Assembly (NCBI GenBank): GCA_964444755.1
Contig: CAYUIF010000001.1
Span: 238,402 to 302,401, forward strand
Reading direction: 5' to 3'
DNA from: an uncultured Alphaproteobacteria bacterium
Lineage (GTDB): Bacteria; Electryoneota; RPQS01
DNA: 64,000 bases
Shown here: piece after piece, positions 10,067-64,000 of the stretch
Position numbering within the stretch: the stretch's first letter is position 1
How the letters are laid out: every line of letters starts with the position of its first letter
Position numbers and translations under genes: made by a program
The notes under the pieces: model-generated
What the model was told of the DNA's origin: nothing
The model's database searches: none
What the model saw: only the letters and a program-made list of their open reading frames with translations

Positions 10067-10609
10067 CTACTTCCCCTCCACCTCGATTTCCACCCCCAGT
10101 GCATTCGCCAGCCGGTTGATGTAGTTGTAATAGGCTGCGATCTGTACCACCCGTAAAATCTCCAAATCATCCAATCCGCACACTCGCAAGTCTTCCACAT
10201 CCTGCCGCTTCATGGAATTGGGCAGTAGCGTGATCTTCCGCGCGAAATACACCAACCGCTGTAATCGCTTCGGTTGATCGTCCGGTTCTTCGCCGTCCGT
10301 TAAACACTGCACCAGATCCTCGCTGCCGCCGGCCTGTCGCAGCGCATCCGTGTGATGATGCAGACAGTAGTGGCACTCGTTGGCCACCGAAACCGCGACC
10401 GCAATCGCTTCCCGCTCCAATCGCGGCAAGCCCTCCGGCGAGTACATCGCCGCGAAGTACAGATCGCGACTCGCGCGCAGGCTGTCGGGATCGAGACTTT
10501 GCAGCGGATAGATATTCGCCACCCGTCCCCGCGCCCGCGCAATCTCGCGGTAAATCTCCGCCAGTTTGCCTTCCGCCTGTTCCGGATTGATCGTTTCGAT
10601 GTACGGCAT
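10067..10609 (-). CDS. Carboxymuconolactone decarboxylase / AhpD-like peroxidase-related protein
   Basis: CHYCLHHH (CxxC...H) AhpD-core motif. Start MPYIETINPEQAEGK. Confidence 0.75.
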   Translation of the reverse strand: MPYIETINPEQAEGKLAEIYREIARARGRVANIYPLQSLDPDSLRASRDLYFAAMYSPEGLPRLEREAIAVAVSVANECHYCLHHHTDALRQAGGSEDLVQCLTDGEEPDDQPKRLQRLVYFARKITLLPNSMKRQDVEDLRVCGLDDLEILRVVQIAAYYNYINRLANALGVEIEVEGK

Positions 10610-10635
10610 GTTTAATGAAAATTCATAACACAAAG

Positions 10636-10859: not shown

Positions 10860-12224
10860 TTACACTACTCCCGCCCGTTGCCACAGCGCCGTCGCTTCGC
10901 GTTGGGCGTTCCGCTTTATGGCGATCTCATCGCCCTTGACCAACCGGCCGTCCTCCACTACGATTTCACCGTTGGTAATCACCGCCCTGGCTCGATGATC
11001 GAATCCGCAAAAGACCGGCGCCGCAATGGGATCGAATGCTCCGGCAAACGCCAGTTGATCCAAATCGAAAATCGCCACATCGGCGGCTTTTCCTTCCAGC
11101 AAGCGGCCCGCCTCGCAGAATCCTAAAACCCGGGCTGATCCCGCCGTCGCCAGATGAATCACTTTCCGCGCCGTCAGCGCGCGGTTGCCCCACACCGCCC
11201 GCCCTAACAGCATCGCTTGCCGGAGTTCGCCCAGCATATCGCTGCTGTCGTTGGACGCGCTGCCGTCTACGGCCAGTCCCACCGGCACACCCCGCGTAAT
11301 CATTTCGGGAATCCGCGCCGCGCCCGATCCCAACCGCATGTTGCTGGATGGGCAATGCGCCACTCCCGTTCCCCGCTTGGCCAGCTTGTCTAACTCGTCA
11401 TCGTTGAAATGAATGCCGTGCGCATACCAGATATCCGCGCCGATCCACCCCAAATCGTCCATGAATTGCAGCGGACGCACGCCGTATTTCGCGATGCAAT
11501 ACTCTTCTTCATCCTTCGTTTCCGCCAAATGCGTATGCAGTCGCACGTGATGTTTGCGCGCCAATTCCGCCGACTCCTTCAGCAAATGCGGCGTAACGTT
11601 GAACGGACTGCACGGCGCCAGATTCAACCGGCACATGGATAGGGGAGAGGGATCGTGATATTTGCGGATTAAGTCTTCGCTGCTCCTTAGAACATGATCG
11701 TCATCTTCCACCAGATCATCCGGCGGCAAGCCTCCGCCGGATTGTCCAAGGGTCATGGAACCCCGCGTCGCGCAGAACCGCATTCCCAGTTCGCGTGCCG
11801 CCTCGATCTCAATCCCGATCAAATCATCCGCCACACCTTGCGGGAACAAATAGTGATGATCGGAACTGGTTGTGCAGCCCGTGATCTGCAATTCGGCAAT
11901 CGCCAGCCGCGCCGCCGCGTGCAGCGTCTCCGGGCGCACGTGCCGCCACACTTGGTAATGATACACCAGCCATTCGAACAGCTTCTCGTCTTGTGCGCCC
12001 GGCAGGCAGCGCGTCATCGTCTGAAAGAAATGGTGATGCGTGTTGATCAATCCCGGCAGCACGACTTTGTTCGTACAATCCAACACGCGGGTTTCCGGGG
12101 ATGCCTTCAGACCGTGTCCGATCTCGGCAATCTGGTTTCCGGAGATGCGCAGATCAACATCTCGTTGTTCGGTCCCTTCACATTGAAACAGCGCATGAAT
12201 GTTTTTAAGTAGTAGATCAGCCAT
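10860..12224 (-). CDS. Amidohydrolase (TRZ/ATZ chlorohydrolase / 8-oxoguanine-deaminase / SsnA-like family)
   Basis: Metal-binding VVLPGLINTHHHFFQT. 454 aa from MADLLLKNIHALFQ. HxH...H...D architecture. Confidence 0.85.
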   Translation of the reverse strand: MADLLLKNIHALFQCEGTEQRDVDLRISGNQIAEIGHGLKASPETRVLDCTNKVVLPGLINTHHHFFQTMTRCLPGAQDEKLFEWLVYHYQVWRHVRPETLHAAARLAIAELQITGCTTSSDHHYLFPQGVADDLIGIEIEAARELGMRFCATRGSMTLGQSGGGLPPDDLVEDDDHVLRSSEDLIRKYHDPSPLSMCRLNLAPCSPFNVTPHLLKESAELARKHHVRLHTHLAETKDEEEYCIAKYGVRPLQFMDDLGWIGADIWYAHGIHFNDDELDKLAKRGTGVAHCPSSNMRLGSGAARIPEMITRGVPVGLAVDGSASNDSSDMLGELRQAMLLGRAVWGNRALTARKVIHLATAGSARVLGFCEAGRLLEGKAADVAIFDLDQLAFAGAFDPIAAPVFCGFDHRARAVITNGEIVVEDGRLVKGDEIAIKRNAQREATALWQRAGVV

Positions 12225-12660
12225 TTCACTTTCCGCTTGCGTGGTTAACACTCCAATATATGAAATTGAATGAAAGTCGCACGGTATTACCGTACTTAAA
12301 ACGAGAAATCGTAAAGGAGGCATGATATTGTACTAAATAGTCCATTAATGGGTCATGACTGTGCAGTTTCTAACACACTTCCAGACTTCTTCACTATTCA
12401 TATGTTAATCTGACAATTCCGAGATTATTTTTGGGGAATGCCATTCTTCTCAAATTACAAATATTTTAAACTTTTCATATTGAAGATATTGCTTCACCAT
12501 ATAAAGTCCTTATCTTTTTATTAGGTGTAAAGGAACAGGTTGGATTGATATTGTTCTAAATTTCACAAATAGAGTGCTGGTGTTCGTATTCTCAGGCATG
12601 CGTCCTCTCTGCATTGCGTATGCGAATACCGCGTATGTTCCTGACCAGGAGGAGAGATCA

Positions 12661-15600
12661 ATGAAACAATTCATGAGAGGGTTTTGTGGGGCGCTCTTGA
12701 CGATAATCATCGTCGGAGCGTCTTCGGTTTTTGCACAGTGTAACGCACATTTGCTTGCGGCACTCGATGAAAACAATCCCCTGTACGCCGGTCAACGGTT
12801 CGATGTTTCGGTCTGGACCGGCAGTCCGTACTGCCCGGCCAGTGGTCAGATCACGATTCGAACCGAACCGCCCGGTTCGGCGCTCATTGCGGGTAATCCG
12901 TTCTGGGTGGACAGTTTCTTCGATGTGTTTACTGAAGTCGAAACCGTGAAACCGCCGATCACACCGATCGTGCCGCCGGGCACCCCGTTTCAGATCATCA
13001 CCGAAGTGACCTTCGACGATCCGGTGTATCCGGCCTTGTGGTATGAAGAGATGGTGCAGGTTACTCCAATGAACCGTTTGGAGATCATTCATCCGCTGCC
13101 GTGCACCAGTAACGTACCCCCGGATTTGTTCTTGGGGTCGGGCAGTTGCTTCACGGTTTGTCATGGAGTGTACACGGTAGCATTGATCGGCGGTCCGATC
13201 AATTGTGAGCCGATTATTCACGTGACTCCCGGTTGCACAATGCCGCCGTGCGGACCGCAGCCGTGTATGCCGGGTTCGCCGGATTCCTACCGCTATGAGG
13301 TCTATCAATATGGCGGTCAATGGTACCTTGAGTTCGAGTATTCCAATCCCCTTGTGGAACCGGTTTGCTACTGCGTCAACTATGTGGGCAATTTGCCGCA
13401 TGCCGGCGAAACCTATGTATTAGGCGGATGGGAGAACGCGCGCCAGGATATGAATGTCTCGGTGTGGACCAACAACTTGATGGATCCCATCAGCGGGACA
13501 ATCGAGATCTTTTCCTATCCCGCCGGAGCCCAGTTTGAAGGTGGCGGTGGGGGCGGTGGTGGATATGTCGAATCCTTCTTCGATGTCTTCATGGAGCCGT
13601 GGACGGCCGATCCGCCGGTCGGTCCCGGTATCTTTACTCCCGGTCAGCAGTTCCAACTCATTGGCTACATCCACTATGATCCCCCCGGACTGAGCTATCC
13701 GCCGCAATGGGTAGTAGAGGATGTGGTTGTCACGCCCAATGGCGGATTACAACTGGTCAATCCGGGTTGTACCGGTCCGGTGATTATCCCGCCCCGGATT
13801 ACTCCGGGAGTCCCGGCTTGTCTGAATGTCTGTCACGATATCTATTACATTCCGCTGGATTGCGAGGCATCGTCTACGCCCGAAGTGCAAATCTTCTCCG
13901 GCTGTGATCTGACCACGCCCTGTGCCAGTACGTTCCCCTGCACGCCGGGCGCCATGACTGATTTCCGCTATGATGTTTATCGGGTGGGCGGAACGTGGAT
14001 TTTGGAATTCGAATACTCCAACGAGCAGATTCAACCGGTTTGCTATTGTGTGGATGTTTCGTGCCCGTCCACGCCTCGTCCCGTGGCCTATGGTTTAGGC
14101 GCGCTCAGCGAATGGCATCAAACCTTTGATGTTTCCGTGTGGGGGAGCAGTCCGCGAGTTCCCCTGAATGGAACAATCCACTATCGCTCCGACCCGCCGG
14201 GAGCCGCTTTAGACTGGCCGGTGGATAGTTTCTTCGATGTGTTCCTGGAACCGTTTACCTCGAAGGTTCCGGTCATGCCGGGCATCTTCATGCCCGGTGA
14301 GACGTTCCATCTGATTGCCGAGATTGATTTCTTTGGTCCCGGCAGCGATCCCTTCGATGGAATTATTTACGATGAGTGCGTGGTGGTTACTCCCACCGGA
14401 CAATTGGCGCTATGGGATCCCATTACCCCCTGCGGCGGTGACTACACGCCCGGCTCGATGAGTCCCGGACAATCCGAATGTTTCCGGGTTTGTCACCGGG
14501 TTTACGAAATTGTTTTGAATTATCTGCCCGGCGGCGGTCGTCCGGTGATCAGTGTGACGCCCGGCTGCCAAGGTCCGCCGTTCGATAATTGCGTGATGGA
14601 AGCTTGCGTTCCCGGCGGTCCTAACGACTTTGTCTATGATGTTTATCACAACGGAGTGGATTGGATTCTGCGTTTCGAGTATTCCAATCCTTATGTCGAA
14701 CCGGTCTGTTACTGCGTGACCTATGAAGGCAATGTGCCATTCGATTGTGAAACCCGCGAACTGGCCGCTCTCGATGAGATAGATTCGTTCTTCGATGTGT
14801 CACTCCGCACCTTCAGCCCCAGCGGTCAAACCTGTCCCGCTTCGGGAATGATTACTCTCTATTCTTATCCGGAGGGTGCGTATATCGGTCCGTACATCGA
14901 TTCCTTCTTCGATGTGTTCACCGAATGGTACACCGTAAAGGCGCCGGTCGGTCCGGGTACCTTTGGACCGGGTGAAGCCTTCCAGCTCATCGCCTATATT
15001 GATTACACCGAACCCGCCTATCCCGATCAATGGCTGACCGAGGAAGTGATGGTGAATTCTGCGGGTACGGGTCTCGTGATCAATGACACCGGTGGTGAAT
15101 GCACGGGCGATATCGTTCCGCCGGCCATGAACTTGGGGATGTCGGCCTGCTTCAAGGTCTGTCATCGCATCTACCATATTCCCATCATTGATGCGACTGA
15201 TCCCGCCAATCCGCCAACGGTCATCGTTACTCCCGGCTGTTTCGGTGAACCGCAGGATCATTGCCTGCCCGACCCGGAATGCACGCCCGGTCATCCCGAC
15301 TACTATCGTTACGATCTCATTTGGATGGGAGACCATTGGGAACTGGAGTTCGAATACTCCAACGAGAATGTCGAACCCGTCTGTTACTGTGTGACGGTCG
15401 AAGGAACCTCCCAACCCTGTGAGACGCACGCCTTGGTCGCGCTGGACAGCGACAATCAGTTGTTGAAGGTGAGCTTGATGTCGCGTGATCCGGGCGGGAC
15501 ACTGCCCTGCGAAGTTAGTGGAACGGTAAGGCTGCAATCGGTTCCATTCGGACTGTATTTCCAGACTCCAACTTGGCACTTCTTCGGAGTCGGTGAAGAA

Positions 15601-17004
15601 TGGGTTGCAGAAGCCACGCCGGTGGCGCGGGATGCGGGTGTTCCGGATAGCTTCTTCGATGTCTTCGTGGAAATTGATTTTGATGATCCCGCTCAACCGG
15701 ATATGATCGAAACCGAAAGTGTGATGGTTGATCCGGTTTCCGGCGGCTTGGTCATTAACGACGTGGGCGGCCAATGCCCGCCCGGCGCGATCTATGTTCC
15801 GGATACGTTGCACTACGGACAACCCGAATGCTTCAAGGTCTGTCACGATATCTATTACGTGTCGCTGGATATCCCCGGACCGCAAGTCATCCCGGTGGTT
15901 ATGGTGACGCCCGGCTGTGATCCTTCCGCCACCAATTGCAGCGATCCGGCCTGCACCCCCGGCGGCCCCTTCGACTATCGCTACGATGTGTTCAAAGTCG
16001 GCGGCTCGTGGATTCTCGAATTTGAATATTCCAACGAGGATATCGAACCGGTTTGTTACTGCGTTGAAGTCTCCGCGATCAATCCGGTTCCCTTCGAAGC
16101 GTATATGCTGGGAACGTTGAACGAAGTGGATCAGACCTTCGATATCACCTTATGGACCTCCCCCGGTGCGCCCCTCGCCGACGGCAGCTTGATCGTATAT
16201 GCCGATCCGATTTCCGCCAGTGTTATTCCGTTTACCGGAGTGGGAGCGGATTACGTGACGTGGCATGTGCCGGTCAGCACCGGTATGCTGCTGCCCGGAC
16301 AGGATTTTGAGCTGATCGCCCGCGTGCAATTCAACGATCCGGTCTTCGGCAGATGGGAGTATCACGAGACCGTGATGATTGATCCCACCGGCATCGTTAT
16401 CCCCTGGGATCCCATCACACCGTGCATCGGTGATCATGTTCCGGCGGTGATGGACGGCGGCACGTCCCGCTGCTTCATCGTCTGCCACAAGGTCTACGAT
16501 GTTCTGCTCAATATCTCGCCGCTGGTGACGCAGCCGTTGATTTCGGTCACCCCCGGCTGTTTCGGCGCGCCGTTGGATAGCTGCCCCGTAGTGGATTGCC
16601 GGCCCGGCGGTCCGCTGGATTACTGCTACCGCTTCTACTTCGATGGAATCTATTGGCATCTCCTCTTCGAGTATTCCAATATGTACCGTCAGCCCGTGTG
16701 CTACTGCGTCACGATTCTTTCACCGCCGCCGCCGTGCGATCCGGTGCCTGACCTGGTGATTCTCTGGCCGAATGTGGATACCGGGGCTCCGCTGCAGATT
16801 ACCTTCACCTGCCCGCAGGATGCGGAATACCTGATCTACAGCACCACCGATCCGAACAATCACGGCGATCCGCCCGGTCCGCTGTGGTCGCTGGATCACA
16901 CCGTCCTCGGTTTGGCCGGTCAGCAGATTACCTGGGTTCCGGTTCATGCCGATAATGCCTACTACCGCAATTATGTCGTGAAGGCGCGCTGCGGTCCGCA
17001 TTAA
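12661..17004 (+). CDS. Giant secreted cysteine-rich protein built from six tandem ~225-aa repeats (novel repeat family with a CX3CH motif)
   Basis: GGAGGAG RBS, then ATG at 12661. Signal peptide MKQFMRGFCGALLTIIIVGASSVFAQC. Six units each contain DSFFDVF, C-x3-CH (CFTVCH, CLNVCH, CFRVCH, CFKVCH twice, CFIVCH), VTPGC, C.PG.P.D.YRYDVY..G..W.LEFEYSN and EPVCYCV. There is a poly-Gly linker (GGGGGGGG) and no T9SS C-terminal domain. Confidence 0.85.
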   Translation: MKQFMRGFCGALLTIIIVGASSVFAQCNAHLLAALDENNPLYAGQRFDVSVWTGSPYCPASGQITIRTEPPGSALIAGNPFWVDSFFDVFTEVETVKPPITPIVPPGTPFQIITEVTFDDPVYPALWYEEMVQVTPMNRLEIIHPLPCTSNVPPDLFLGSGSCFTVCHGVYTVALIGGPINCEPIIHVTPGCTMPPCGPQPCMPGSPDSYRYEVYQYGGQWYLEFEYSNPLVEPVCYCVNYVGNLPHAGETYVLGGWENARQDMNVSVWTNNLMDPISGTIEIFSYPAGAQFEGGGGGGGGYVESFFDVFMEPWTADPPVGPGIFTPGQQFQLIGYIHYDPPGLSYPPQWVVEDVVVTPNGGLQLVNPGCTGPVIIPPRITPGVPACLNVCHDIYYIPLDCEASSTPEVQIFSGCDLTTPCASTFPCTPGAMTDFRYDVYRVGGTWILEFEYSNEQIQPVCYCVDVSCPSTPRPVAYGLGALSEWHQTFDVSVWGSSPRVPLNGTIHYRSDPPGAALDWPVDSFFDVFLEPFTSKVPVMPGIFMPGETFHLIAEIDFFGPGSDPFDGIIYDECVVVTPTGQLALWDPITPCGGDYTPGSMSPGQSECFRVCHRVYEIVLNYLPGGGRPVISVTPGCQGPPFDNCVMEACVPGGPNDFVYDVYHNGVDWILRFEYSNPYVEPVCYCVTYEGNVPFDCETRELAALDEIDSFFDVSLRTFSPSGQTCPASGMITLYSYPEGAYIGPYIDSFFDVFTEWYTVKAPVGPGTFGPGEAFQLIAYIDYTEPAYPDQWLTEEVMVNSAGTGLVINDTGGECTGDIVPPAMNLGMSACFKVCHRIYHIPIIDATDPANPPTVIVTPGCFGEPQDHCLPDPECTPGHPDYYRYDLIWMGDHWELEFEYSNENVEPVCYCVTVEGTSQPCETHALVALDSDNQLLKVSLMSRDPGGTLPCEVSGTVRLQSVPFGLYFQTPTWHFFGVGEEWVAEATPVARDAGVPDSFFDVFVEIDFDDPAQPDMIETESVMVDPVSGGLVINDVGGQCPPGAIYVPDTLHYGQPECFKVCHDIYYVSLDIPGPQVIPVVMVTPGCDPSATNCSDPACTPGGPFDYRYDVFKVGGSWILEFEYSNEDIEPVCYCVEVSAINPVPFEAYMLGTLNEVDQTFDITLWTSPGAPLADGSLIVYADPISASVIPFTGVGADYVTWHVPVSTGMLLPGQDFELIARVQFNDPVFGRWEYHETVMIDPTGIVIPWDPITPCIGDHVPAVMDGGTSRCFIVCHKVYDVLLNISPLVTQPLISVTPGCFGAPLDSCPVVDCRPGGPLDYCYRFYFDGIYWHLLFEYSNMYRQPVCYCVTILSPPPPCDPVPDLVILWPNVDTGAPLQITFTCPQDAEYLIYSTTDPNNHGDPPGPLWSLDHTVLGLAGQQITWVPVHADNAYYRNYVVKARCGPH
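12780..16740 (+). repeat. Six intragenic tandem repeat units (~660-680 nt each) inside the giant gene
   Basis: EFEYSN codons recur at about 13331, 14011, 14673, 15342, 16021 and 16670. Protein units share roughly 35-50% identity. Confidence 0.8.
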
Positions 17005-17030
17005 TCATCCTCAACGAACCTGAAACCATC

Positions 17031-17059
17031 GGCGGGACGCGATCATTCGCGTCCCGCCG
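17031..17059 (+). terminator. Terminator hairpin after the giant gene
   Basis: ggcgggacgcga-tcat-tcgcgtcccgcc (13-bp stem), then ttcttataaa. Confidence 0.6.
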
Positions 17060-17073
17060 TTCTTATAAACGAC

Positions 17074-17103
17074 GCGGGCTGTCGTCCGAAGACCGACAGC
17101 CCG
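17074..17103 (-). terminator. Terminator hairpin after the rhodanese gene (convergent)
   Basis: gcgggctgtcg-tccgaaga-cgacagcccgc is a perfect 11-bp stem. Confidence 0.5.
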
Positions 17104-17128
17104 CAGCCAGTGAGAGAAAAAGCGGTGA

Positions 17129-18151
17129 TTATCGAATCGCAATCGCGCCGGTTTCCACCGGATAAGTCGGTGTGAGATTCGTCCACACATTCGCGCCCAG
17201 AATTGCCGGATCATCGGTGATGGCGTTCACGCCCATCCGCATCGAATAAGCGTCATAACCCAGCGCGTTGAGATAAGCGTCCATCTGCATGGAGGTTTGA
17301 CCCGTGAAACAGTACACAACCACCGGACGATCGGTGGGAATGTACTTCAGATTCTCGGTAAGACCCAGCGATCCGGGCTGAAAGCGATAGGAACCGGGAA
17401 TATGTCCCGCATTGTAGTTGGCTTCCGGCCAGTAGCACAAGAGGAACCAGTCGTTGCTGGCGTCGCCGTCGTTCAGGTTGGTATAAACGTCCGCCGCGCT
17501 CTTCATCTTCCAGTTTACCGGGGAAGCCGTGAGCTGCTGGGAAATGCGGCTGACGAACATATCAATCGCGCTGCCGCTGGCGCTCGGATTCGGGAACGCG
17601 TATTCGGTGGTCAGCGGATGATTGGCTGTTTCCAACGTCTGTCCGCCGCGGGTCAGGGTGTACCAGCCGCCGCCCGCGCCGGTCTGGGCTGTATCGCTGG
17701 TCCATGAACAGAAGCCCCACTTGAGATTGTAGGCGTTGAGACCGACCAGGTTCAAGTAACTGGTGGCAAAACTGGCGGTTTGGCCCGTATAGCAGTAAAC
17801 CACGATCTTCTTATCCGTCGGCAGATCCGCGCGATAGTTCACTAAGTCTGCGGCATCCCAGTGATGCGCGCCGGGAATGTGACCGCGCACCGTATCATCC
17901 GCCAGCGAGCGAATGCTGATGATATAGGGTTGAGTTGCATCACCGTCGTTCATTTCCGTCCATAACACATCCGCGGTGATATTCTTGGTTGAACCGAGAA
18001 TACTGTCGCCCCAGGCTGCCATCGTTTGAAACGCAGTAGTAGCTGGCGGATTGTTGTTGTCGCTGCTGTCGTCATCATCGGAACAACCGATGAATACCGT
18101 TAAACTGGCCATGAGAATCATGGGGACCAGCCATTTCGCAAATGCCTTCAT
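17129..18151 (-). CDS. Lipoprotein with two rhodanese-like domains
   Basis: Lipobox LTVFIGC. Two rhodanese active-site-type loops, VVYCYTGQTASF and VVYCFTGQTSMQ, each preceded by HIPGA/HIPGS. Confidence 0.85.
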   Translation of the reverse strand: MKAFAKWLVPMILMASLTVFIGCSDDDDSSDNNNPPATTAFQTMAAWGDSILGSTKNITADVLWTEMNDGDATQPYIISIRSLADDTVRGHIPGAHHWDAADLVNYRADLPTDKKIVVYCYTGQTASFATSYLNLVGLNAYNLKWGFCSWTSDTAQTGAGGGWYTLTRGGQTLETANHPLTTEYAFPNPSASGSAIDMFVSRISQQLTASPVNWKMKSAADVYTNLNDGDASNDWFLLCYWPEANYNAGHIPGSYRFQPGSLGLTENLKYIPTDRPVVVYCFTGQTSMQMDAYLNALGYDAYSMRMGVNAITDDPAILGANVWTNLTPTYPVETGAIAIR

Positions 18152-18208
18152 GTACCTCTCCTTGAATGGGTGTTGTGTGTTGTTATTCGTGTATCGAATG
18201 ATTTCTAC

Positions 18209-19309
18209 TTACCAGGGCGGCGGTCCGTCGGGAACGATCACTCCCGCATTGGCTTGCCGCTCGTTCGCTGATGATAATTGATCCAAATCCACCTGCCGGA
18301 GGAAGAAACCTTCCGGAGTGTTGGGAGTCAGGTGGCAGGCTGCGTTGCAGCTCTGTCCGCCGCTGGTATCGGTCTGCGCCGTCCAGCGTACGATATTGTG
18401 CGGAGTTGCGTATTTGTACGTCGGCAACGATGCATAATTCGGACTGGCGATCCCCCACGGTGTGTACGTATTCTCGGATACCGGGATATGCCGCAGCACG
18501 ACATATTCGCCGGGGCGCTGATCGGGAATCGGATTCCGTCCGATCTTGAAATCTATCCACGATGGTTGCTGAATGCCGTCGCCCGCATGACACTCCGCGC
18601 AATTCTTGTAGGCTTGCGAGTGGCACACCTGACACTGTAAATCGTCGCCGTGAACGGTGTGATACGAATTGGCCGCCAGCGGACTGTGGCAGTCGCGGCA
18701 GCTCACCGGATCGTCCACGTCATAGCGGGTTGTGTACTCCGTTCCGTCGCCATGAATCTTCTGGCCGCTGTGACAGGCTTTGCAATGCATCGCATTGGGA
18801 ATGTAGTGGACGTCGGCGCGGTATCCGGCGTTTTCGCCGGTATATTCAGGACCGATGCGGCTGCCGTGACAAGCGATGCACTGGTTGGTCATATCCGGAG
18901 TGCGGCGGATGTTATGGCCTTGAATAAACCCTCCGCCCACCGACTTCGGACGGCTGATGTGGCATGATCCGCAGCTCGCATGGCACTTGTTGCATTCGGC
19001 GTTGTACGCCTCATAGGCGTGCGGATCGGAAGTCAAAGCCCGCCCCGTGCGTGCTTCGAAGAGCGTATGATACCCCTTCATGGTCGTATGCAGACTGTGC
19101 GATACGTTATTCGCGATCTCCTGATGGCACATCCCGCACTGGTTGACGGAGATCTCCGACGGATCGGCAATCATTCCGTCGTGCGCTTCTTCCTTCGTGA
19201 GTTGTCCGGCCCGTCCGCCGTGACAGATGCGGCATTCCAGTGCGTGGGCGCTGTTGCGGAACGCTTCATAACCGCTGCCTGTCAGAATTACTTTTTGCCA
19301 TCCCTCCAA
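18209..19309 (-). CDS. Multiheme c-type cytochrome (9 CxxCH + 1 CxxxCH), body segment without its own signal peptide
   Basis: CRICH, CGMCH, CNKCH, CGSCH, CIACH, CKACH, CRDCH, CQVCH, CAECH, CNAACH. Begins at a TTG, 18 nt downstream of and in frame with the 19328-19549 ORF. Confidence 0.8.
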   Translation of the reverse strand: MEGWQKVILTGSGYEAFRNSAHALECRICHGGRAGQLTKEEAHDGMIADPSEISVNQCGMCHQEIANNVSHSLHTTMKGYHTLFEARTGRALTSDPHAYEAYNAECNKCHASCGSCHISRPKSVGGGFIQGHNIRRTPDMTNQCIACHGSRIGPEYTGENAGYRADVHYIPNAMHCKACHSGQKIHGDGTEYTTRYDVDDPVSCRDCHSPLAANSYHTVHGDDLQCQVCHSQAYKNCAECHAGDGIQQPSWIDFKIGRNPIPDQRPGEYVVLRHIPVSENTYTPWGIASPNYASLPTYKYATPHNIVRWTAQTDTSGGQSCNAACHLTPNTPEGFFLRQVDLDQLSSANERQANAGVIVPDGPPPW

Positions 19310-19327
19310 CGGAGAGACTGAGCCGCC

Positions 19328-19549
19328 TCAGCCTTCGCCGCTGTCATCGCCGGAAGAGCCGGTATCCGGCAGCGCAACGGCTTTCAGCATGGTTTCGTTG
19401 GTATGGCAGCCGATGCAATCCGCGGTGTTGGCTTCTCCCGCGGGAGCGGCCGGATTATCCTCATCGCTGCATCCCCAAAAGGCGAAGGCGGCGAAGAGTA
19501 ATCCGATAGCAACCAGTACCCAAAACGTCATGGGTTTCATATCGTGCAA
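19328..19549 (-). CDS. Lipoprotein signal peptide + first heme-binding site (CIGCH); probable N-terminal part of the multiheme cytochrome, cut off by an in-frame TGA
   Basis: MKPMTFWVLVAIGLLFAAFAFWGC lipobox, then CIGCH. The TGA at 19328-19330 is in the same frame as the 366-aa cytochrome ORF. Confidence 0.55.
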   Translation of the reverse strand: MHDMKPMTFWVLVAIGLLFAAFAFWGCSDEDNPAAPAGEANTADCIGCHTNETMLKAVALPDTGSSGDDSGEG

Positions 19550-19727: not shown

Positions 19728-20168
19728 TTACTGTGCTCTCTGGTTCAGTATCTCGATGATCTGCGGAACCTGCGGATCTTCGGGAACCAGCTTCTGATAT
19801 TCCCGGAACAGTTCAATTGCGGTGCGGGCATCACAGTAGGATTCATAAATTCCCAGCACCAACACCCGGTTGGCCGGATCGTCGAAGCTGCGGTGTCCGT
19901 TGCCGATAAACGAAGCCAAATCCGGGCACGGACAATCCTCCGCCTTTGGATCGGTGTCCAGAATGATTGCGGGATTTTCGGTTAGTAGTTCGAAATAGAG
20001 GCGGTAGCCGTCCCGTAAGCGACCGGTTTCGATGTAGGCAATAATCAGTTTCTTGCGAGCCTTCAGATGTTCGGGATGAAGGCGAAGGTATTCTTCCAGG
20101 ATCGGCACCGCCCGCTCATAGCTGTGGGTCAGAAAAAAGTAATTGCCGATCATCTCCGAGATCGCCAT
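19728..20168 (-). CDS. Small TPR-like protein
   Basis: 146 aa from MAISEMIGNYFFLTHSYERAVPILEEYLRLHPEHLKARKKLIIAYIETGRLRDGYRLYFELL. Helical repeat character. Confidence 0.55.
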   Translation of the reverse strand: MAISEMIGNYFFLTHSYERAVPILEEYLRLHPEHLKARKKLIIAYIETGRLRDGYRLYFELLTENPAIILDTDPKAEDCPCPDLASFIGNGHRSFDDPANRVLVLGIYESYCDARTAIELFREYQKLVPEDPQVPQIIEILNQRAQ

Positions 20169-20248
20169 CGGACCTCCATGTCCAGTTGTTAAAAATGTAA
20201 CAAGCAACATTCAGACCATCTTGTAAAAATAATAACTTAACAAAAAAC

Positions 20249-20374: not shown

Positions 20375-21688
20375 CTACTGTTCCATCTTATATTGCTTCA
20401 TCAACCGCCACAAAGTCGTTCGGCTGATTCCTAAAAGTTCGCAGGCTTTTTGTCGGTTCCAGTTAGTATCCCGCAATGCGCGAAGAACTCTCGCCTTTGC
20501 GGTTGATCCGCCCTGGTCATTGATCGAAATCACACTCTGGTTCTCCCTGACTTCAGGAGGCAAATGACCCAGTTGCACAGATCCGCCACGGGCTCGAATC
20601 ATGCTATACTCCAGAGCGTTCTCTAATTGCCGCACATTTCCCGGCCATTGGTAGCGTGCCAAGGCATCGTAACACTCATCGGTGAGCTGCGCTTTCGGGT
20701 AATTATTTTTGTTCTTCAGGCGGTTGAATAGACTCTCAACCAGTAACAATACATCATTTCCTCGTTTGCGCAGCGGCGGCAATTCCATGGGGACGGTTGA
20801 CAGACGGTAAAATAGATCCTCGCGAAACTTTCCCTCGGCGATGAGCTTTCGTAAATCCCGGTTGGTCGCGGCAATCACCCGGACATCCACTTTGATCGTC
20901 CGGCTCCCGCCCACCGGTTCGAACTCCCGCGATTGCAGCACTCGCAGCAGTTTAAGCTGAACGGCCGGAGACGCTTCCCCGATCTCATCTAAAAATATCG
21001 TTCCCCCGTCCGCCGTCTCGAACCGCCCCGCCCGGTCGGTGTAGGCTCCTGTGAATGCTCCCTTTACATGACCGAATAACTCGCTTTCCAGAAGATTTTC
21101 GGCAAAAACGGAGCAATTGACCTTCACATACGCCTTGTTCCGGCGGGGACTGCGGGCGACGATGGCATCCGCCGCCAATTCCTTCCCGGTTCCGCTTTCG
21201 CCCGTGATTAATACCGTGGTCTCCAACCCCGCCACTTGCTCGATCAGCTCGAAAACCTCCAGCACACTGCGATCTCGACCGATCATTCCTTCAAAATGAT
21301 CCTCGGCCGCCAGTTGACTACCCCGTTGCGCGCTATCCACTGGGCGAAACACCATGATTCCGCCGGTGGTCTCGCCGGTTTCATCTTTCAGTTCCGAAGA
21401 ATTGACCAGCACCTGAAGGGTTGCTCCATCCTTGCGGGTAATAGCCATCCGGGTATCCCGGAGTGGTTGGCCAAGTTCCAGGGCGCGAAATAACGGGCAC
21501 TCATCCTCACACCGGTCCGTCTTAAATACGCTCCGGCAGAATAACCCCGTTTCTGCCGACGTTGAGAAGCCCGTCAGGCGTTCGGCGGACGGGTTCATAT
21601 AGGTCAGCTTCCAGTTGCGGTCCACGATATAGACGCCTTCGTGAAGCGCATCCAATAGCGCATGAAGTGCGAAATCAGATAGGTCCAT
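20375..21688 (-). CDS. Sigma-54-dependent transcriptional activator with N-terminal PAS domain (NtrC family)
   Basis: PAS (YIVDRNWKLTYMNPSAERLTG). AAA+ Walker A GESGTGKE. GAFTGA sigma-54 contact motif. ESELFGH. C-terminal Fis-type HTH (ACELLGISRTTLWRLMK). Confidence 0.92.
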   Translation of the reverse strand: MDLSDFALHALLDALHEGVYIVDRNWKLTYMNPSAERLTGFSTSAETGLFCRSVFKTDRCEDECPLFRALELGQPLRDTRMAITRKDGATLQVLVNSSELKDETGETTGGIMVFRPVDSAQRGSQLAAEDHFEGMIGRDRSVLEVFELIEQVAGLETTVLITGESGTGKELAADAIVARSPRRNKAYVKVNCSVFAENLLESELFGHVKGAFTGAYTDRAGRFETADGGTIFLDEIGEASPAVQLKLLRVLQSREFEPVGGSRTIKVDVRVIAATNRDLRKLIAEGKFREDLFYRLSTVPMELPPLRKRGNDVLLLVESLFNRLKNKNNYPKAQLTDECYDALARYQWPGNVRQLENALEYSMIRARGGSVQLGHLPPEVRENQSVISINDQGGSTAKARVLRALRDTNWNRQKACELLGISRTTLWRLMKQYKMEQ

Positions 21689-23982: not shown

Positions 23983-24957
23983 CTATTTAAGAAGTACTAC
24001 CGGTTGTGATAGAGTTCTTTTCGGACTCGTAAGTCGCACATAATACATGCCCGACGAAAGTTGACTTCCCTCAATCTGAACTCTATGAAAACCAGAACTC
24101 AACGGACCCTTTGTCAAAGTCTGGACACGCCTGCCCAAAAGATCATAAAGTGCCACATCCATCACCATCGGCGAGGACAACGTGAACGAAATCGTGGCCG
24201 TGCTGTTGAAGGGATTCGGGTAGACCTCGCTTAATGCGAACTCCTCTCCGATGGCCGCGCGAGGCTCGTCGGTCCACGAGGTCGCTTCGAGAGTGATGTC
24301 TATTCCCTCGGGGAAATTCGATTCCTGTACGACGATGGCGGTGGGAGTGCCGCCGCCGTAGACGCCGCGCGGTTCGCCGGGATCCCATGCGAAGTTGCCG
24401 TCGAGATCCATGAAGGCATAAGCATAGAAGGTGGCGAAGCTGTCCACCAGCGCGACGTAATCGCCGTTGCCGGTATTGTTGAAGAGCAGGCTGCCGCCGT
24501 GGGGGAGGTCGAGAAAATCGGGAGTGTAATAGGCGAACAGCAGGGTGGTTCCGGTGCCCGCGCCGCTATAGCTGATGGTTCCCGAAAAGCCGCCTTGATT
24601 GGGCGGATGGAGTTCGATGTTCACGCCGGTGGTATCGGAAATCAACTCGAAGACCTGCGGGATATCGCCGCCGTAGAAACCGCGCGGTTCGTCCAGATCG
24701 GGAGTGATGCTGGTATTCAGATCCTGATAGGCAAACAGCACATAGCCGCCTTCATCCAAACCCGAAAAACCGTAGGTGTTGATGAACGGAATGGCGATGG
24801 TGATGTAGAAGGTATCGAGGGTAGTGGGCACGGCAAACACATAGCGCAGCGGCAAGCCCGTTCCGCCGGTGATAGTGCCGGAGATGGAATAGGCTTGGGC
24901 AGTACCCGCCCATAGAATGAGGCACAACAAACAGATCGCGAATAATCGGCTCTTCAT
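23983..24957 (-). CDS. T9SS (Por) C-terminal sorting-domain secreted protein
   Basis: Signal MKSRLFAICLLCLILWAGTAQA. C-terminal VYPNPFNSTATISFTLSSPMVMDVALYDLLGRRVQTL...GMYYVRL...VVLLK matches the TIGR04183-type domain. Confidence 0.8.
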   Translation of the reverse strand: MKSRLFAICLLCLILWAGTAQAYSISGTITGGTGLPLRYVFAVPTTLDTFYITIAIPFINTYGFSGLDEGGYVLFAYQDLNTSITPDLDEPRGFYGGDIPQVFELISDTTGVNIELHPPNQGGFSGTISYSGAGTGTTLLFAYYTPDFLDLPHGGSLLFNNTGNGDYVALVDSFATFYAYAFMDLDGNFAWDPGEPRGVYGGGTPTAIVVQESNFPEGIDITLEATSWTDEPRAAIGEEFALSEVYPNPFNSTATISFTLSSPMVMDVALYDLLGRRVQTLTKGPLSSGFHRVQIEGSQLSSGMYYVRLTSPKRTLSQPVVLLK

Positions 24958-25139
24958 AAGAACTCCCGTCGGCATAAGTGGCGATGACCCAGTGTACGAA
25001 GATTTCCGCGCATTTTCAAATTCTACTTACGTTACACAATTCATGCCGAAATCCGGCGGTCCGCTCAATAAATTTAAGGCGATAGGTGGAGTGGCATGGA
25101 AATATTTTTTTGCCGAACGAACTACCTAAGAACAGAGAA

Positions 25140-41726: not shown

Positions 41727-41771
41727 TCGCTACAAAATATTCTATTCACATCCGCCTAACGGGAGGCTGTT

Positions 41772-44081
41772 ATGAAAACGCTCCTAAGTTTCATTCTTAT
41801 GTGCTGTTTTGTAGGAGCAGCCATCGCAACTTCTGTTTTGGAGTGGTACCGTTTGTTGCCCAGTCTTGGTGAAGCAAGTAGTGTAGTATGTTTGTCCGAT
41901 GGTGGATTTGTGGTTGTTGGAAATGGCGTAATCATGCGATTGACTTCGCGGGGGGACACATTATGGTCTCAATCCTTCAGCAGTCCAAGCGGAGGATGGG
42001 CCGTCAATCATAAAGTCATTTTTGACTCTGATTCAAACTTAGTCGTTGCAGGTGAATGGTATAATGCAGGAATTAGAGCCTTTATTCGTAAGCTTTCATT
42101 ATCAAGCGACCTGATCTGGTGCCATGAATATATTCTTACAGAGTATACGGGTTTCAATGATATTAAGAATACTCCCGGAGGCGGTTTTGTTGCGGTAGGA
42201 AAGTATCTTTATATAAATGGATTCATCGCTCGCTTGGATGAGCAGGGTGACACCCTGTGGACAAGAATTATTCCCAACGAATTCATTCCCAGTGGAGTGA
42301 TTGTATCACCGGATTCTGCCTATCTCATTTCTGGCTATACATCAAATCCGGACTATCCAATTTTTGCCAGATACAGTCTTGAAGGAAATCAAGATTGGAT
42401 CAGGTATTGCGGAGGTATGGGAAGATCAGCCACGATCTTGCTGGAAAATTCTCAATTGCTAATCGGTTTCGGAACAGCAAGTTATTCTGATTACAGTGGA
42501 CAACCGCGATGGTCCTCCATGAGTACGGATAATGGATTAGCCTGCACAGCGGGAGTAGTACCTTCTCCTACCAGCCACATTAGCGATGCCATGCCGATTT
42601 CAAATGGATATCTGTTAGCGGGATGGACTGGTTATAGCACGTATGATCACTTGGGCTATATTCTGAAAGTAGATAGTTTCGATCCATCACGAGTAGTCTG
42701 GACGACCACAATACATACCGGAACATCGTACAATCGTGAATGGTCACAATTTAATGGAATTGCATCAACTCTTGATGGGGGATTTGTTGCCGTTGGACGA
42801 GGTACAGGAGGAACACATCAGGACTGGTTAATTGCGAAATACTGCCCCGAAGATGCTCCAGCTGGCGGATTCACTATTATCCACCCCGGACCACCCGATT
42901 GGGGCTTCTCGCTTGGTTGGTTAGGTGGAGAGTTAGATACAATCGCCTTTACGAATATTAGTGACGGCGCCTATGGCGATGTTACGGGTTCGGCTGCGGC
43001 CGACTGGCATATTCTGAATAATGGAGACGGTAATGACGGGGATTCGATCATCTTCGTTGCATCCCAACCTTTCGGCGGTTGGGAAGTGGATACGTTTTGG
43101 ATCAGGAATATGCAAGACAACCACTGCACGATTTCCTATATTGCGGAATGTCCCAAAGGAATTATTGGTTTGGATAATGGAGGACACGTTGAGATTCTCG
43201 CTGAAGGACTATATCACTCCGGTTTTGCAGTTGTCCGTGATACGGCTGCCGTACGGAAAATCATCTTTTCGCAATTTCCCACTGGTACAACCGGCAGAAT
43301 AACTGGTGTGGCATCGCTGACTTGGGAAATGATGTCAAATGGCGATGGAAACAATGGCGATTCGGTAATCTTCTTTACTGGCGTTCCGCTTTTGACCGGT
43401 TCAGTGGATACCTTTTGGCTTGATAGACCTGAAGGCAGCGGAATCGCAGATTGGTCCATCGGTTGCAACTCCGGAACAGCGCGGGTATTTACGGGCATCG
43501 TAGATTCGGTGCGATTTGCGGGACAGTACTTGGCGAATGGCATTTCTCTTTCGCTTACGACATACAATGAATCATATCTTTCTTGCTTCCGTGTTTTTGG
43601 CAAGCACACAACAAGTGCACCGTGGGTTGAGATTGGCGTTATTCCTGCCACGAATGACTCTGGTCCTAACCACTATTTGCTCAATGGTGGAGTCCGCGGG
43701 ATTGGATTCCAATTCATGGTTATAGCTGAGGATTCATTTGGTGTCCAGCGAGAGTATGATGATCAAGTTCTGATTGTCGGTCAAAATGTGCCGACTGATA
43801 TGAAGAATATATATCTGTCAACTGAGTTTAAACTCTCTTCCTTCCCCAACCCCTTCAACCCATCCACTACCATTTCGTTTTCGCTTCCCAAATCCGCAAT
43901 CACCCGCTTAACGGTCTATGATCTCTTAGGCCGTGAAGTGGCGGTATTGACAGATCATTTGTTAGAAGCGGGCGAACATAATCTGCAATTCGATGGTTCT
44001 GATTTACCCTCCGGTCTCTACTTCGCCCGTCTGCAATCCGGAGATTTCGTTACGACTCAGAAGCTCTTATTGGTGAAATAA
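41772..44081 (+). CDS. T9SS-sorted beta-propeller-repeat protein (769 aa)
   Basis: Signal MKTLLSFILMCCFVGAAIA. Repeated DGGF.V.G / GDTLW blades. C-terminal FPNPFNPSTTISFSLPKSAITRLTVYDLLGREVAVL...LLLVK. Confidence 0.8.
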   Translation: MKTLLSFILMCCFVGAAIATSVLEWYRLLPSLGEASSVVCLSDGGFVVVGNGVIMRLTSRGDTLWSQSFSSPSGGWAVNHKVIFDSDSNLVVAGEWYNAGIRAFIRKLSLSSDLIWCHEYILTEYTGFNDIKNTPGGGFVAVGKYLYINGFIARLDEQGDTLWTRIIPNEFIPSGVIVSPDSAYLISGYTSNPDYPIFARYSLEGNQDWIRYCGGMGRSATILLENSQLLIGFGTASYSDYSGQPRWSSMSTDNGLACTAGVVPSPTSHISDAMPISNGYLLAGWTGYSTYDHLGYILKVDSFDPSRVVWTTTIHTGTSYNREWSQFNGIASTLDGGFVAVGRGTGGTHQDWLIAKYCPEDAPAGGFTIIHPGPPDWGFSLGWLGGELDTIAFTNISDGAYGDVTGSAAADWHILNNGDGNDGDSIIFVASQPFGGWEVDTFWIRNMQDNHCTISYIAECPKGIIGLDNGGHVEILAEGLYHSGFAVVRDTAAVRKIIFSQFPTGTTGRITGVASLTWEMMSNGDGNNGDSVIFFTGVPLLTGSVDTFWLDRPEGSGIADWSIGCNSGTARVFTGIVDSVRFAGQYLANGISLSLTTYNESYLSCFRVFGKHTTSAPWVEIGVIPATNDSGPNHYLLNGGVRGIGFQFMVIAEDSFGVQREYDDQVLIVGQNVPTDMKNIYLSTEFKLSSFPNPFNPSTTISFSLPKSAITRLTVYDLLGREVAVLTDHLLEAGEHNLQFDGSDLPSGLYFARLQSGDFVTTQKLLLVK

Positions 44082-44225
44082 TCCGCCGTGGTCGGTCTCC
44101 CGACCGGCCATGGCCCATCGTCATTATTCTTCAGGAGGTTCTCATGAAATCGGCAACTGTGACCTGTCTCCTGTTCTTATCCGTATCCCTTTCTTTTTCG
44201 CAACCCCCCGATACCCTGTGGATGC
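43840..44225 (+). repeat. Cassette junction: conserved C-terminal-domain coding block + intergenic RBS + conserved signal-peptide coding block
   Basis: The ~240-nt C-terminal-domain coding segment recurs at 45327-45568, 46752-46992 and 48050-48291 (about 80-90% nt identity). The RBS/signal-peptide block (ttcaggaggttct.atgaaatcggcaactgtgacctgtctcctg...) recurs at 45583-45680. Confidence 0.75.
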
Positions 44226-45568
44226 GCACCTATTACGCTGATATGGGAGGCAATGCGAACGCACTGTGTCTCACCCAAGACGGCGGTTATGCTGTAGCCG
44301 GTATCTGCTGCTTTGCTGGCTACCACAACTTCTTCTTTGGTGGTTTTGTTAATAAACTGGATCATTCCGGCCAGACGGAATGGACATGGAGTATTTTAGG
44401 CAGTGCGCTCGCCAACAGCTGCTGGGCGAATGACGTGATTTCGACGGCAGACGGCGGTGTGGTGGCCTGCGGCAGTGGCAACTACTGGGGAGGCGGTCTC
44501 GGCCAAGGTCCGGAAATGTACCTCTGGGTAGTGCGATTAAATGCCCAGGGAGATACCCTATGGTTTTACGAGCAAACGGAAAGTAATACTGATTGGTATG
44601 GCGGCGGTCGGGCGATTGCGACCGCGCCCGACGGATTCCTCATTGCCGGATCATATTTTACGTCGCTGACAAAGCTGGACACCGCTGGGAACCTGCTCTG
44701 GCAGCGCAATTGGGGCATGTCGCTAAAGGATATCACACCGACTCCCGATGGGAATTTCGTGTGTGTCGGATCGTATGATACCAGCGCATCCCGCTGCCTG
44801 ATCGTTAAAGTCACTCCCGACGGCGATACGCTGTGGACGCGCGATTGTAATACGGGATGGGATGAACAGGTGCGTGCGGTGACCACCACCTTTGGCGGCG
44901 GACTGGCCATCTGCGGAACGGGTAACTATCCACCTATCGGCGTTGATACCTTCTTGGGGATCTTGGATAGCAGCGGCAATTATCTGGTACGACGGGCTTA
45001 TGAACACGAGCATTCTTATGCCATAGATCTCTGCCAACTCGCCGATTCGGGATTCATCCTGGTGGGCGGAATTACACCGACCTACCCTAATCCGAGGCAG
45101 ACCTTTGTCGTTCGCACGGCACCGAATGCCGATGCGATGTGGACCAAGCTGTGGGATGAGACTTTTGAAAACTTTGCCAACTCCGTCGTACAGGATACCG
45201 ACAGCGGCTTTGTCTTGGTCGGCAAATGGGGAAATGATTACTGGTATATCTCCAAACTGGAATACGATCTGGTGGATATAGATGAGTCGCCGACCGCTCG
45301 CATTCCCGAGTCGTTTTCCTTGATGGCTTTTCCCAATCCCTTCAATCCGTCTACTACAATTTCCTTTTCGCTTCCGAAAAGCGCTCAAACCCGCTTAACG
45401 GTCTATGATCTCTTAGGCCGCGAAGTGGCGATACTGAGCGACGGAATGCTGGAAGTGGGCGAACACCAAATGCAATTCGATGGTTCAGCCTTGCCTTCCG
45501 GTCTCTACTTCGCTCGCTTGCAATCCGGAGATTTCGTTACGACTCAGAAGCTCTTATTGGTGAAATAA
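44144..45568 (+). CDS. T9SS-sorted beta-propeller-repeat protein (474 aa), paralog
   Basis: Signal MKSATVTCLLFLSVSLSFSQPPDTLW is identical to that of the next gene. Repeated DGGY / GDTLW blades. T9SS C-terminal domain. Confidence 0.8.
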   Translation: MKSATVTCLLFLSVSLSFSQPPDTLWMRTYYADMGGNANALCLTQDGGYAVAGICCFAGYHNFFFGGFVNKLDHSGQTEWTWSILGSALANSCWANDVISTADGGVVACGSGNYWGGGLGQGPEMYLWVVRLNAQGDTLWFYEQTESNTDWYGGGRAIATAPDGFLIAGSYFTSLTKLDTAGNLLWQRNWGMSLKDITPTPDGNFVCVGSYDTSASRCLIVKVTPDGDTLWTRDCNTGWDEQVRAVTTTFGGGLAICGTGNYPPIGVDTFLGILDSSGNYLVRRAYEHEHSYAIDLCQLADSGFILVGGITPTYPNPRQTFVVRTAPNADAMWTKLWDETFENFANSVVQDTDSGFVLVGKWGNDYWYISKLEYDLVDIDESPTARIPESFSLMAFPNPFNPSTTISFSLPKSAQTRLTVYDLLGREVAILSDGMLEVGEHQMQFDGSALPSGLYFARLQSGDFVTTQKLLLVK

Positions 45569-45597
45569 TCCGCCTTTATCGCTCTTCAGGAGGTTCT

Positions 45598-46992: not shown

Positions 46993-47043
46993 CCATAATT
47001 GAATTACATTCTATGTTGAACTACACCTTTGTCGGGAGGGACA

Positions 47044-63890: not shown

Positions 63891-63935
63891 CGCAGATCCT
63901 GATCGATACATCATAAGACCTCCCGGATCCACCAT

Positions 63936-64000
63936 TATTCTTTAACGATACCTGCTTCCTGCAGCGCGTCGAAGACATCCCTTTTCAGAAACAATTGCGG
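63936..64000 (-). CDS. 3' end of an unidentified gene running off the right edge
   Basis: Reverse-strand reading ...PQLFLKRDVFDALQEAGIVKE, then a stop at 63936-63938. Confidence 0.3.

Follow-up and report, generated by a model that had tools for sequence, protein, structure and literature searches.

The locus raises the question of whether two adjacent reading frames separated by a stop codon, one for a short exported leader and one for a multihaem cytochrome, are two genes or one, and what kind of enzyme they encode. They lie on the reverse strand of the window, the whole 64-kb stretch of contig CAYUIF010000001.1 that was analysed. The cytochrome open reading frame (ORF; 18209..19309) contains nine CxxCH motifs and one CxxxCH motif, with no export signal within that ORF alone, and the upstream ORF of 73 residues (19328..19549) has a signal peptide with a lipobox (FWGC-SDEDN) and a further CxxCH motif. 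An earlier annotation made from the letters of the window only, termed here the sequence-only reading, had counted the same haem motifs; however, it took the leader to be detached. The two ORFs share one frame, with a single TGA between them (...SGEG-TGA-GGSVSPLEGWQK...). We propose that this TGA encodes selenocysteine (Sec), and that 18209..19540 is almost certainly a single Sec-containing gene. Together with the product of an adjacent rhodanese gene, the undecahaem lipoprotein would form a reductase of sulfur or selenium compounds, a reading of the whole to which we assign a probability of roughly 55%. The elements of the cytochrome gene are as follows.

18209..19540, reverse strand: gene of an undecahaem Sec cytochrome lipoprotein, 443 codons including one UGA (Sec71), called from the shared frame and the full-length Cys-type homologues
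19328..19330, reverse strand: in-frame UGA (Sec) in the motif G-E-G-U-G-G, called from aligned codon counts in relatives
19301..19317, reverse strand: hairpin of the selenocysteine insertion sequence (SECIS) type, UCUCUCC-GUU-GGAGGGA, 10 nt after the UGA and of class A, called from comparative covariation

The whole cytochrome has ten CxxCH motifs and one CxxxCH motif, and its lipobox Cys24 is followed by SDEDN. A protein search with Cys in place of the TGA found 854 homologues, and relatives are encoded by at least 594 genomes in a scan limited to one genome per species. At an E value of 1e-30 or better there are about 116 clusters (50% identity). The near-identical match is P0001 (99%), from a metagenome-assembled genome (MAG) of Calditrichota. 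The best 80 loci of the species-level scan and three from metagenome contigs make up the 83 related loci used below; counts out of 84 include the window itself. The MAGs of the best 80 loci are labelled as Calditrichota, KSB1, Eisenbacteria, Krumholzibacteria, Gemmatimonadota, Ignavibacteria, Bacteroidota, Chloroflexi and others. Nearly all of the 854 homologues start right after the TGA position, with a query coverage of about 83%. Full-length homologues also occur (P0048, P0074, P0094 and P0112), and these have a Cys at the TGA column, in the form G-C-G-G. Of the 83 related loci, 63 have TGA at this column, 18 have TGC or TGT and two have another codon. Reading frames rebuilt with that one TGA allowed gave 73 full-length family members, in which the lipobox Cys24 is conserved in 99%, the first haem motif (C42/C45/H46) in 100% and the Sec/Cys site in 97%, and each of the ten downstream haem motifs is kept at 97% or more.

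The Sec-type genes carry a hairpin that begins 10-12 nt past the UGA and occurs in two registers, class A (n = 33) with a GUU or GGU loop and class B (n = 26), shifted in register, with a UGGAA loop. Of the pair cells, 92-93% are paired in either class, and moving the 3' partners by one or two columns lowers this share to 38-57%. The closing pairs vary in a compensatory manner (CG 8, GC 16, AU 4, UA 2 and GU 3), and 17 of the 18 Cys-type genes are without the hairpin. A single-sequence RNA fold of the region after the UGA in the window gave a minimum free energy that is not exceptional (z = -1.1); the support for the SECIS element therefore comes from the comparison across loci. In one Cys-type locus, from a MAG labelled Actinomycetota (L013; TGT, codon at 2169), a perfect 7-bp SECIS-like hairpin is retained, and this gene is apparently a recent Sec-to-Cys conversion. 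The two loci with neither Sec nor Cys at the site, L014 with Arg ('GEIRGG') and L046 with Gly ('ARGGDG'), may be degenerate or functionally diverged copies.

Could the TGA be a real stop, a sequencing error or the mark of a pseudogene, with the leader peptide and the cytochrome as separate products? Gene callers and NCBI annotate only the 366-residue downstream ORF, as a hypothetical protein (P0001), and the Sec machinery is not visible in the 64-kb window, in which no selA, selB or selD gene, no tRNA-Sec and no known RNA was found (ARAGORN; Rfam at gathering thresholds). However, 63 loci from several phyla have TGA in this position and 18 have a Cys codon, coding conservation runs across the TGA, and a covarying hairpin lies behind it. 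In addition, c-type haem is attached outside the cytoplasm, which requires an export signal, and the downstream ORF has no signal peptide; this supports read-through. The shared frame, the alignment with Cys, the covariation of the hairpin and the conservation on both sides of the TGA therefore indicate one selenoprotein gene, and separate products are hardly credible. An alternative genetic code was also considered and rejected, as TGA is the ordinary stop of long ORFs elsewhere in the window.

The gene next to the cytochrome gene on the same strand, and the hairpin behind it, are as follows.

17129..18151, reverse strand: tandem two-domain rhodanese lipoprotein of 340 residues, matching PF00581 in two stretches (82.3 bits, cut-off 22.2)
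17074..17104, reverse strand: GC-rich hairpin with GUCGUUUAUAAG behind it, which probably terminates the cytochrome-rhodanese transcript, as read from the sequence

The match to PF00581 confirms the two-domain rhodanese lipoprotein with CYTGQT and CFTGQT loops described in the sequence-only reading. The active-site loops are C120-YTGQT and C281-FTGQT, and the lipobox Cys is followed by SDDDD. Of the 77 orthologues, 100% have C120, 97% have C281 and 90% or more have the lipobox Cys. With this fold and a catalytic Cys loop, the protein is predicted to be a rhodanese-type sulfurtransferase; its score against the ExtH equivalog NF040901 was below the cut-off (22.8 bits vs 200, E = 4e-5). In 79 of the 84 loci, which represent many phyla, the rhodanese gene adjoins the cytochrome gene; the two share a strand in every case, and the gap between them has a median of 58 nt. 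The rhodanese gene mostly lies downstream of the cytochrome gene, and upstream in Chloroflexi. The spacer in the window is 57 nt long and holds a AAGGAGAGG ribosome-binding site and no hairpin; together with the hairpin after the rhodanese gene, this indicates that the two genes form a co-transcribed operon.

In two loci, both from Chloroflexi MAGs, the partners are fused into a single ORF with the U retained. A Dehalococcoidaceae MAG (L078, ORF end at about 9188) encodes two rhodanese domains followed by the cytochrome, and an Anaerolineae MAG (L083, ORF end at about 9191) encodes six, in a protein that also has two extra CxxCH motifs and a C-terminal membrane anchor. As such fusions exist, the JGI label 'thiosulfate/3-mercaptopyruvate sulfurtransferase' on truncated fragments that contain the cytochrome only (P0005, P0029, P0034, P0037, P0041 and others) was probably transferred from rhodanese-cytochrome fusion proteins. 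Based on the adjacency in 79 of 84 loci, the single-ORF fusions and the conserved catalytic Cys, the cytochrome is very probably coupled to the rhodanese in function. The pairing of a rhodanese with a multihaem cytochrome, noted before from the window alone, thus recurs throughout the family, and its link to the redox chemistry of sulfur compounds is plausible.

What kind of cytochrome is it? Pfam gave generic multihaem matches only, Cytochrome_C7 at 30.9 bits (cut-off 24.8) and a borderline match to PF22113, domains II/IV of MtrC/MtrF, at 29.9 bits (cut-off 30). No family model was found by a scan of NCBIfam at E up to 10, in which NF040886, TIGR04315 and the GSU2204 family were all unmatched, and phmmer against the PDB returned nothing significant. 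The signal peptide with a lipobox, the eleven haem motifs and the nine His outside the motifs that are invariant among the 73 rebuilt members are those of a multihaem c-type cytochrome. Since eleven haems share only nine invariant His, the sixth position of two haems is probably open or taken by another ligand, as in catalytic haems. From the use of Sec, together with this shortfall of His, we infer that the cytochrome is catalytic rather than wire-like. The sole conserved Cys or Sec outside the motifs, besides the lipobox Cys, is residue 71.

The haem core of the cytochrome is distantly related to octahaem tetrathionate reductase (OTR), and the closest fold is that of OTR, not that of MtrC. 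A haem-free AlphaFold2 (AF2) model of the Cys-type homologue P0048, which is 45-46% identical to the window protein, has a predicted local distance difference test (pLDDT) score of 87; Foldseek with this model found nothing. The protein falls outside the OTR family itself, typified by the enzyme of Shewanella oneidensis (PDB 1SP3), as there was no match to TIGR04315 at E up to 10. Unlike OTR, it has three extra haems, including those of an N-terminal extension of about 120 residues past the OTR core (haem 1, the Sec loop and haem 2), and it is lipid-anchored with an obligate rhodanese partner. An assignment of Sec71 as the positional equivalent of OTR Cys64 was rejected, since the alignment gives no support for it. 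A 2026 review lists three multihaem selenoprotein families, namely ExtKL/MccSep, the tetrathionate reductase family and the GSU2204 family, and the OTR family TIGR04315 has Sec members annotated in GenBank (PMC13188914). Literature searches under several sets of terms found no paper on the cytochrome-rhodanese pair. The cytochrome thus appears to represent a widespread undecahaem family of Sec and Cys types with a near-constant rhodanese partner, described neither in the literature found nor in NCBIfam.

The best precedent is MccSep (ExtKL, GSU2937-2936) of Geobacter sulfurreducens, reported in 2026 as a Sec pentahaem polysulfide reductase that sulfur respiration requires and that also acts on selenite (PMC13510729). 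In MccSep, Sec attacks the substrate beside a His/Cys-ligated haem (PMC13510729), and the gene cluster encodes a rhodanese-like lipoprotein, ExtH, and a porin-like protein, ExtI (PMC6148476). MccSep with ExtH would be the closest functional analogue of the pair in the window. In both systems an in-frame UGA splits a multihaem gene and a SECIS hairpin follows it, there are Cys-type variants and a lipoprotein partner of the rhodanese family, and genes for an outer-membrane barrel and a periplasmic cytochrome lie alongside in some relatives of the window locus as well. However, the cytochrome in the window has eleven haem motifs instead of five, and its Sec71 lies near the N-terminus in a G-U-G-G loop, whereas U325 of MccSep lies in a C-terminal Ig-like domain (D-G-U-P). 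It has no second conserved Cys for His/Cys ligation of a haem, and it is a lipoprotein whereas MccSep is a soluble periplasmic tetramer. In addition, the family occurs in phyla of the FCB group and in Chloroflexi, and MccSep mainly in Desulfobacterota and Nitrospirota. The family is therefore an architecture independent of MccSep, with another taxonomic range.

Based on the linkage and fusions with the rhodanese, the OTR-like core, the use of Sec and the analogy with MccSep, we propose a mechanism for the pair. The rhodanese would take up sulfane sulfur from polysulfide, S0, thiosulfate or tetrathionate, or a selenium analogue, as a cysteine persulfide, and would hand it over to the Sec71 selenolate. 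The flexible G-U-G-G loop would be presented, together with haem 1, by the N-terminal extension of the cytochrome. Electrons from the haem chain would cleave the Se-S bond reductively, resulting in the release of sulfide. They might be supplied through interchangeable modules, a periplasmic decahaem with putative outer-membrane barrels in some relatives and an NrfC-like Fe-S protein in Chloroflexi. A similar relay is represented by Sud and Psr of Wolinella succinogenes, in which the catalytic Cys of the exported rhodanese-fold protein Sud is thought to pass polysulfide sulfur to the respiratory reductase. However, the acceptor there is a molybdopterin enzyme and here a haem selenoprotein, and the rhodanese here is tandem, lipid-anchored and sometimes fused to the reductase. 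In FCB-group bacteria both lipoproteins would sit at the cell surface. Acidic stretches follow the lipidated Cys in the cytochrome (CSDEDN) and in the rhodanese (CSDDDD), and in Bacteroidota such a stretch is a surface-export signal; together with the barrel and decahaem neighbours of relatives, these stretches suggest a position on the outer surface. What the pair reduces, in which direction it works, where it sits in the cell and what Sec does in the cytochrome are all things that we infer.

The neighbours of the pair vary among relatives. A decahaem of the paired-CXXCH type is found near it in 27 loci, and two kinds of putative beta-barrel gene, without a Pfam match and called from the character of their sequences, in 19 and 12 loci. 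Other multihaem cytochromes occur in 16 and 13 loci, a 4Fe-4S NrfC-like protein with a twin-arginine translocation (TAT) signal in 11 loci of Chloroflexi, and TetR regulators in 13 loci. These genes look like interchangeable electron-input and regulatory modules round a constant core of two genes.

Such neighbours also bear on a different function, in which the pair is an outer-surface reductase similar to MtrC/OmcA for insoluble Fe(III) or Mn(IV) oxides or for electrodes, with the rhodanese as an accessory. Like MtrC/OmcA, the cytochrome is a multihaem lipoprotein, with a near-threshold match to PF22113, and subsets of relatives encode decahaem and putative beta-barrel proteins, reminiscent of a porin and a periplasmic cytochrome, beside the pair. 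In addition, the extHIJKL cluster aids the reduction of metal oxides in Geobacter (PMC6148476). However, outer-sphere electron transfer to minerals needs no Sec, and the Mtr systems have neither Sec nor a rhodanese partner. The near-obligate linkage or fusion with catalytically intact rhodanese domains points to a sulfur or selenium substrate instead, and the closest fold is that of an enzyme, tetrathionate reductase, with two haems here left without a conserved His ligand. Reduction of metal oxides is therefore very unlikely as the function of the pair.

The chemistry of a chalcogen enzyme might also differ from the one that we propose, serving mainly the reduction or detoxification of selenite or tellurite, or running in the oxidative direction on thiosulfate, sulfide or polysulfide as in TsdA or SoxAX. 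Rhodaneses bind selenium, and multihaem sulfur enzymes such as TsdA are reversible. MccSep reduces selenite too (PMC13510729), and the Geobacter ext cluster, to whose ExtH the rhodanese has the weak match at E = 4e-5, is named a selenite/tellurite reduction operon in NCBIfam. Nevertheless, phyla of anoxic sediments and an electron input of respiratory type fit abundant sulfur better than a trace element, and we consider these functions unlikely. For the proposed reductase itself, analogy makes a sulfur or selenium compound the somewhat favoured substrate, while a specifically reductive chemistry of polysulfide, S0 or tetrathionate stays tentative, a little short of even odds. In a more far-reaching reading, the family would be a widespread, hitherto unrecognised molybdenum-independent reductase of sulfur, polysulfide or tetrathionate (or selenite), displayed at the surface in the FCB group and in Chloroflexi. 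In its boldest form, Sec71 would be the sixth ligand of one of the two haems without a conserved His, and this haem would be the first natural one with a selenolate ligand. The idea of Sec71 as a ligand arises because, unlike in MccSep, there is no other conserved Cys for His/Cys ligation; we consider this reading quite unlikely.

Upstream of the cytochrome gene, two further genes and a candidate promoter were found.

19728..20168 (ORF to 20210), reverse strand: small TPR protein with a conserved TDPxxDDCPC motif, called from Pfam TPR matches
20375..21688, reverse strand: PAS-domain sigma-54 enhancer-binding protein (PF00158 at 227.6 bits, with AAA_lid_14, HTH_8 and PAS)
20203..20218, reverse strand: candidate sigma-54 (-24/-12) promoter TGGTCTGAATGTTGCT, called from its GG-N10-GC spacing

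The sequence-only reading had placed the PAS-type sigma-54 activator immediately downstream of the redox genes. The activator is present, with the small TPR gene, unmentioned before, between it and the cytochrome gene. By alignment, the TPR gene starts at an ATG at 20168, with a GGAGG ribosome-binding site. A homologue is found in 15 of the 84 loci within the flanks that were fetched, always on the strand of the cytochrome gene, upstream of the latter in Calditrichota and KSB1 and downstream of the rhodanese gene in Ignavibacteria. The TPR protein could be an assembly factor or a co-regulator. The activator has the AAA+ domain, the C-terminal HTH and the sensory PAS domain of a sigma-54 enhancer-binding protein, and homologues occur in 25 of the 84 loci. 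Its PAS domain carries the motif C51-x8-C60-x3-C64-P, the three Cys of which are invariant in 16 of 16 cytochrome-adjacent orthologues. With this triad the domain could sense redox state, a metal or sulfane sulfur; polysulfide is sensed through Cys in the sigma-54 activator FisR.

The activator probably regulates the cytochrome-rhodanese unit. Sigma-54 consensus matches are not enriched in the window (20 vs 29 expected by chance), so the promoter call rests on its position and on better copies in relatives. Such copies, closer to the -24/-12 consensus, precede the TPR gene or the cytochrome gene for example in L016 (TGGCACGCAGATTGCA) and in L044, L072 and L080 (TGGCAT-N5-TTGCA). A strict pattern was found in 13 of 84 sense regions and in 8 of 84 antisense controls when all loci were taken, and in 6 of 23 and 1 of 23, respectively, among the activator-bearing loci. 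It is only suggestive that -24/-12 elements drive the unit.

Several results weigh against reading the pair as a Sec-dependent sulfur or selenium reductase, in addition to the lack of Sec machinery in the window mentioned above. The substrate is deduced only from analogy and from the rhodanese linkage. The cytochrome has no detectable sequence similarity to MccSep and no match to NF040886 at E up to 10, and the family alignment offers no counterpart of the Lys56/Cys64 active-site segment of OTR. The Sec/Cys loop is of low confidence in the AF2 model of P0048 (pLDDT below 50-55). The acidic surface-export signal is known from Bacteroidota, not from Calditrichota. In the 64-kb window no other multihaem gene, porin or periplasmic cytochrome partner is encoded, and the candidate sigma-54 promoter is a weak match with three mismatches to the consensus.

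The remaining question is whether the unit extends to the large gene that faces it, which the sequence-only reading had joined with the rhodanese and the cytochrome into one candidate periplasmic or extracellular redox module.

12661..17004, forward strand: giant secreted protein of 1447 residues, with six Cys-rich all-beta repeats of about 220 residues and a tail of about 97 residues; not a member of the module
17030..17059, downstream of the giant gene on its strand: terminator hairpin of the giant gene

The ORF and its six motifs are as first described, with exactly six C-x3-C-H at distances of 214-227 residues, one per repeat. In a single redox module the giant protein would carry six haems. 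It is physically adjacent to the pair, most repeats keep the CxxxCH string unchanged and all 105 have its His, and the conserved CxxxCH haem motif of the cytochrome itself means that the organism probably matures such sites. However, the giant gene is present in none of the 83 related cytochrome loci, and its homologues sit in other neighbourhoods. At one of these (L086), the RRM, CMD, amidohydrolase, giant and ZU5 genes are arranged as in the flanks of the window and the block of activator, TPR, cytochrome and rhodanese genes is missing, with the ZU5 gene directly after the giant gene. The synteny proposed earlier as a check is therefore conserved for the cytochrome and the rhodanese and never includes the giant gene. 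The three genes had also been given a terminator each in a convergent arrangement; the giant gene is convergent to the other two and, like the rhodanese gene, has its own terminator, and none follows the cytochrome gene.

The motif itself also argues against haem. Alignment of 105 repeats from 22 proteins revealed that each repeat has eight conserved Cys, which could form four disulfides. In 100 repeats the second Cys of CX3CH and the Cys at column 206 are both present, in five both are absent, and no repeat is discordant; the five repeats without the pair are orthologous first repeats and possibly reflect one or few events. The loss of the second Cys only together with Cys column 206 points to a disulfide and not to a haem thioether, although the His that follows is invariant. 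The repeats have no conserved second axial ligand. The AF2 model of a single repeat (pLDDT 95.1) is all-beta, and Foldseek gave only weak Ig-like matches to fimbrial subunits, S-layer domains and DsbD-N (best E = 5.6e-3). The giant protein matched no family at all in Pfam or NCBIfam, and the fold search gave no cytochrome. The covariation of the Cys and the all-beta model are not those of a c-type cytochrome, and neither the claimed three-gene module nor haem binding by the giant protein is upheld; a module that includes it is highly improbable. The giant protein is an unrelated convergent neighbour of the cytochrome-rhodanese unit, best described, with the repeat model in view, as a probable secreted disulfide-rich surface or adhesin-like protein of six modules from an undescribed family.

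The near-identical match of the giant protein is P0121 (98%), from a Calditrichota MAG. Its 21 homologues are mostly unnamed metagenome proteins, and the few that are labelled by organism belong to Calditrichota or candidate division KSB1; members of the family have four to seven copies of the repeat. The modules show the motifs DSFFDVF, CxxVCH and FEYSNxxxEPVCYCV, in an Ig-like beta-sandwich with a Cys-rich part. Upstream of the giant gene lie genes for a CMD/AhpD-like protein with a CHYCLHHH motif (10067..10633, reverse strand) and an amidohydrolase (10860..12323, reverse strand). The CMD and amidohydrolase pair also flanks the giant homologue in L086, and the CMD gene is found in L084 as well; these may be the true conserved neighbours of the giant gene.

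Base composition is unremarkable throughout the region of these genes. Elsewhere in the window, many secreted proteins, including four tandem paralogues, close with near-identical type IX secretion C-terminal domains (...SGLYFARLQSGDFVTTQKLLLVK), found at 41760..48291, 51589..53988, 62751..63941 and 23983..24975. These domains fit an organism of the FCB group.

Multihaem enzymes that depend on Sec have been a proven concept only since 2026, when MccSep was identified as the missing sulfur reductase of Geobacter. The cytochrome locus combines Sec with a haem chain and a rhodanese as well, in a second architecture that is unrelated to MccSep in sequence. Gene callers end the protein at the UGA; databases therefore contain truncated, signal-less hypothetical proteins, sometimes mislabelled as sulfurtransferases, and the family is invisible to metabolic reconstructions of sediments and the subsurface. 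If the pair is a reductase of sulfane sulfur, a capacity for sulfur cycling would be assigned to many uncultured lineages, and the natural Sec/Cys pairs and the rhodanese fusions would be usable for mechanistic work.

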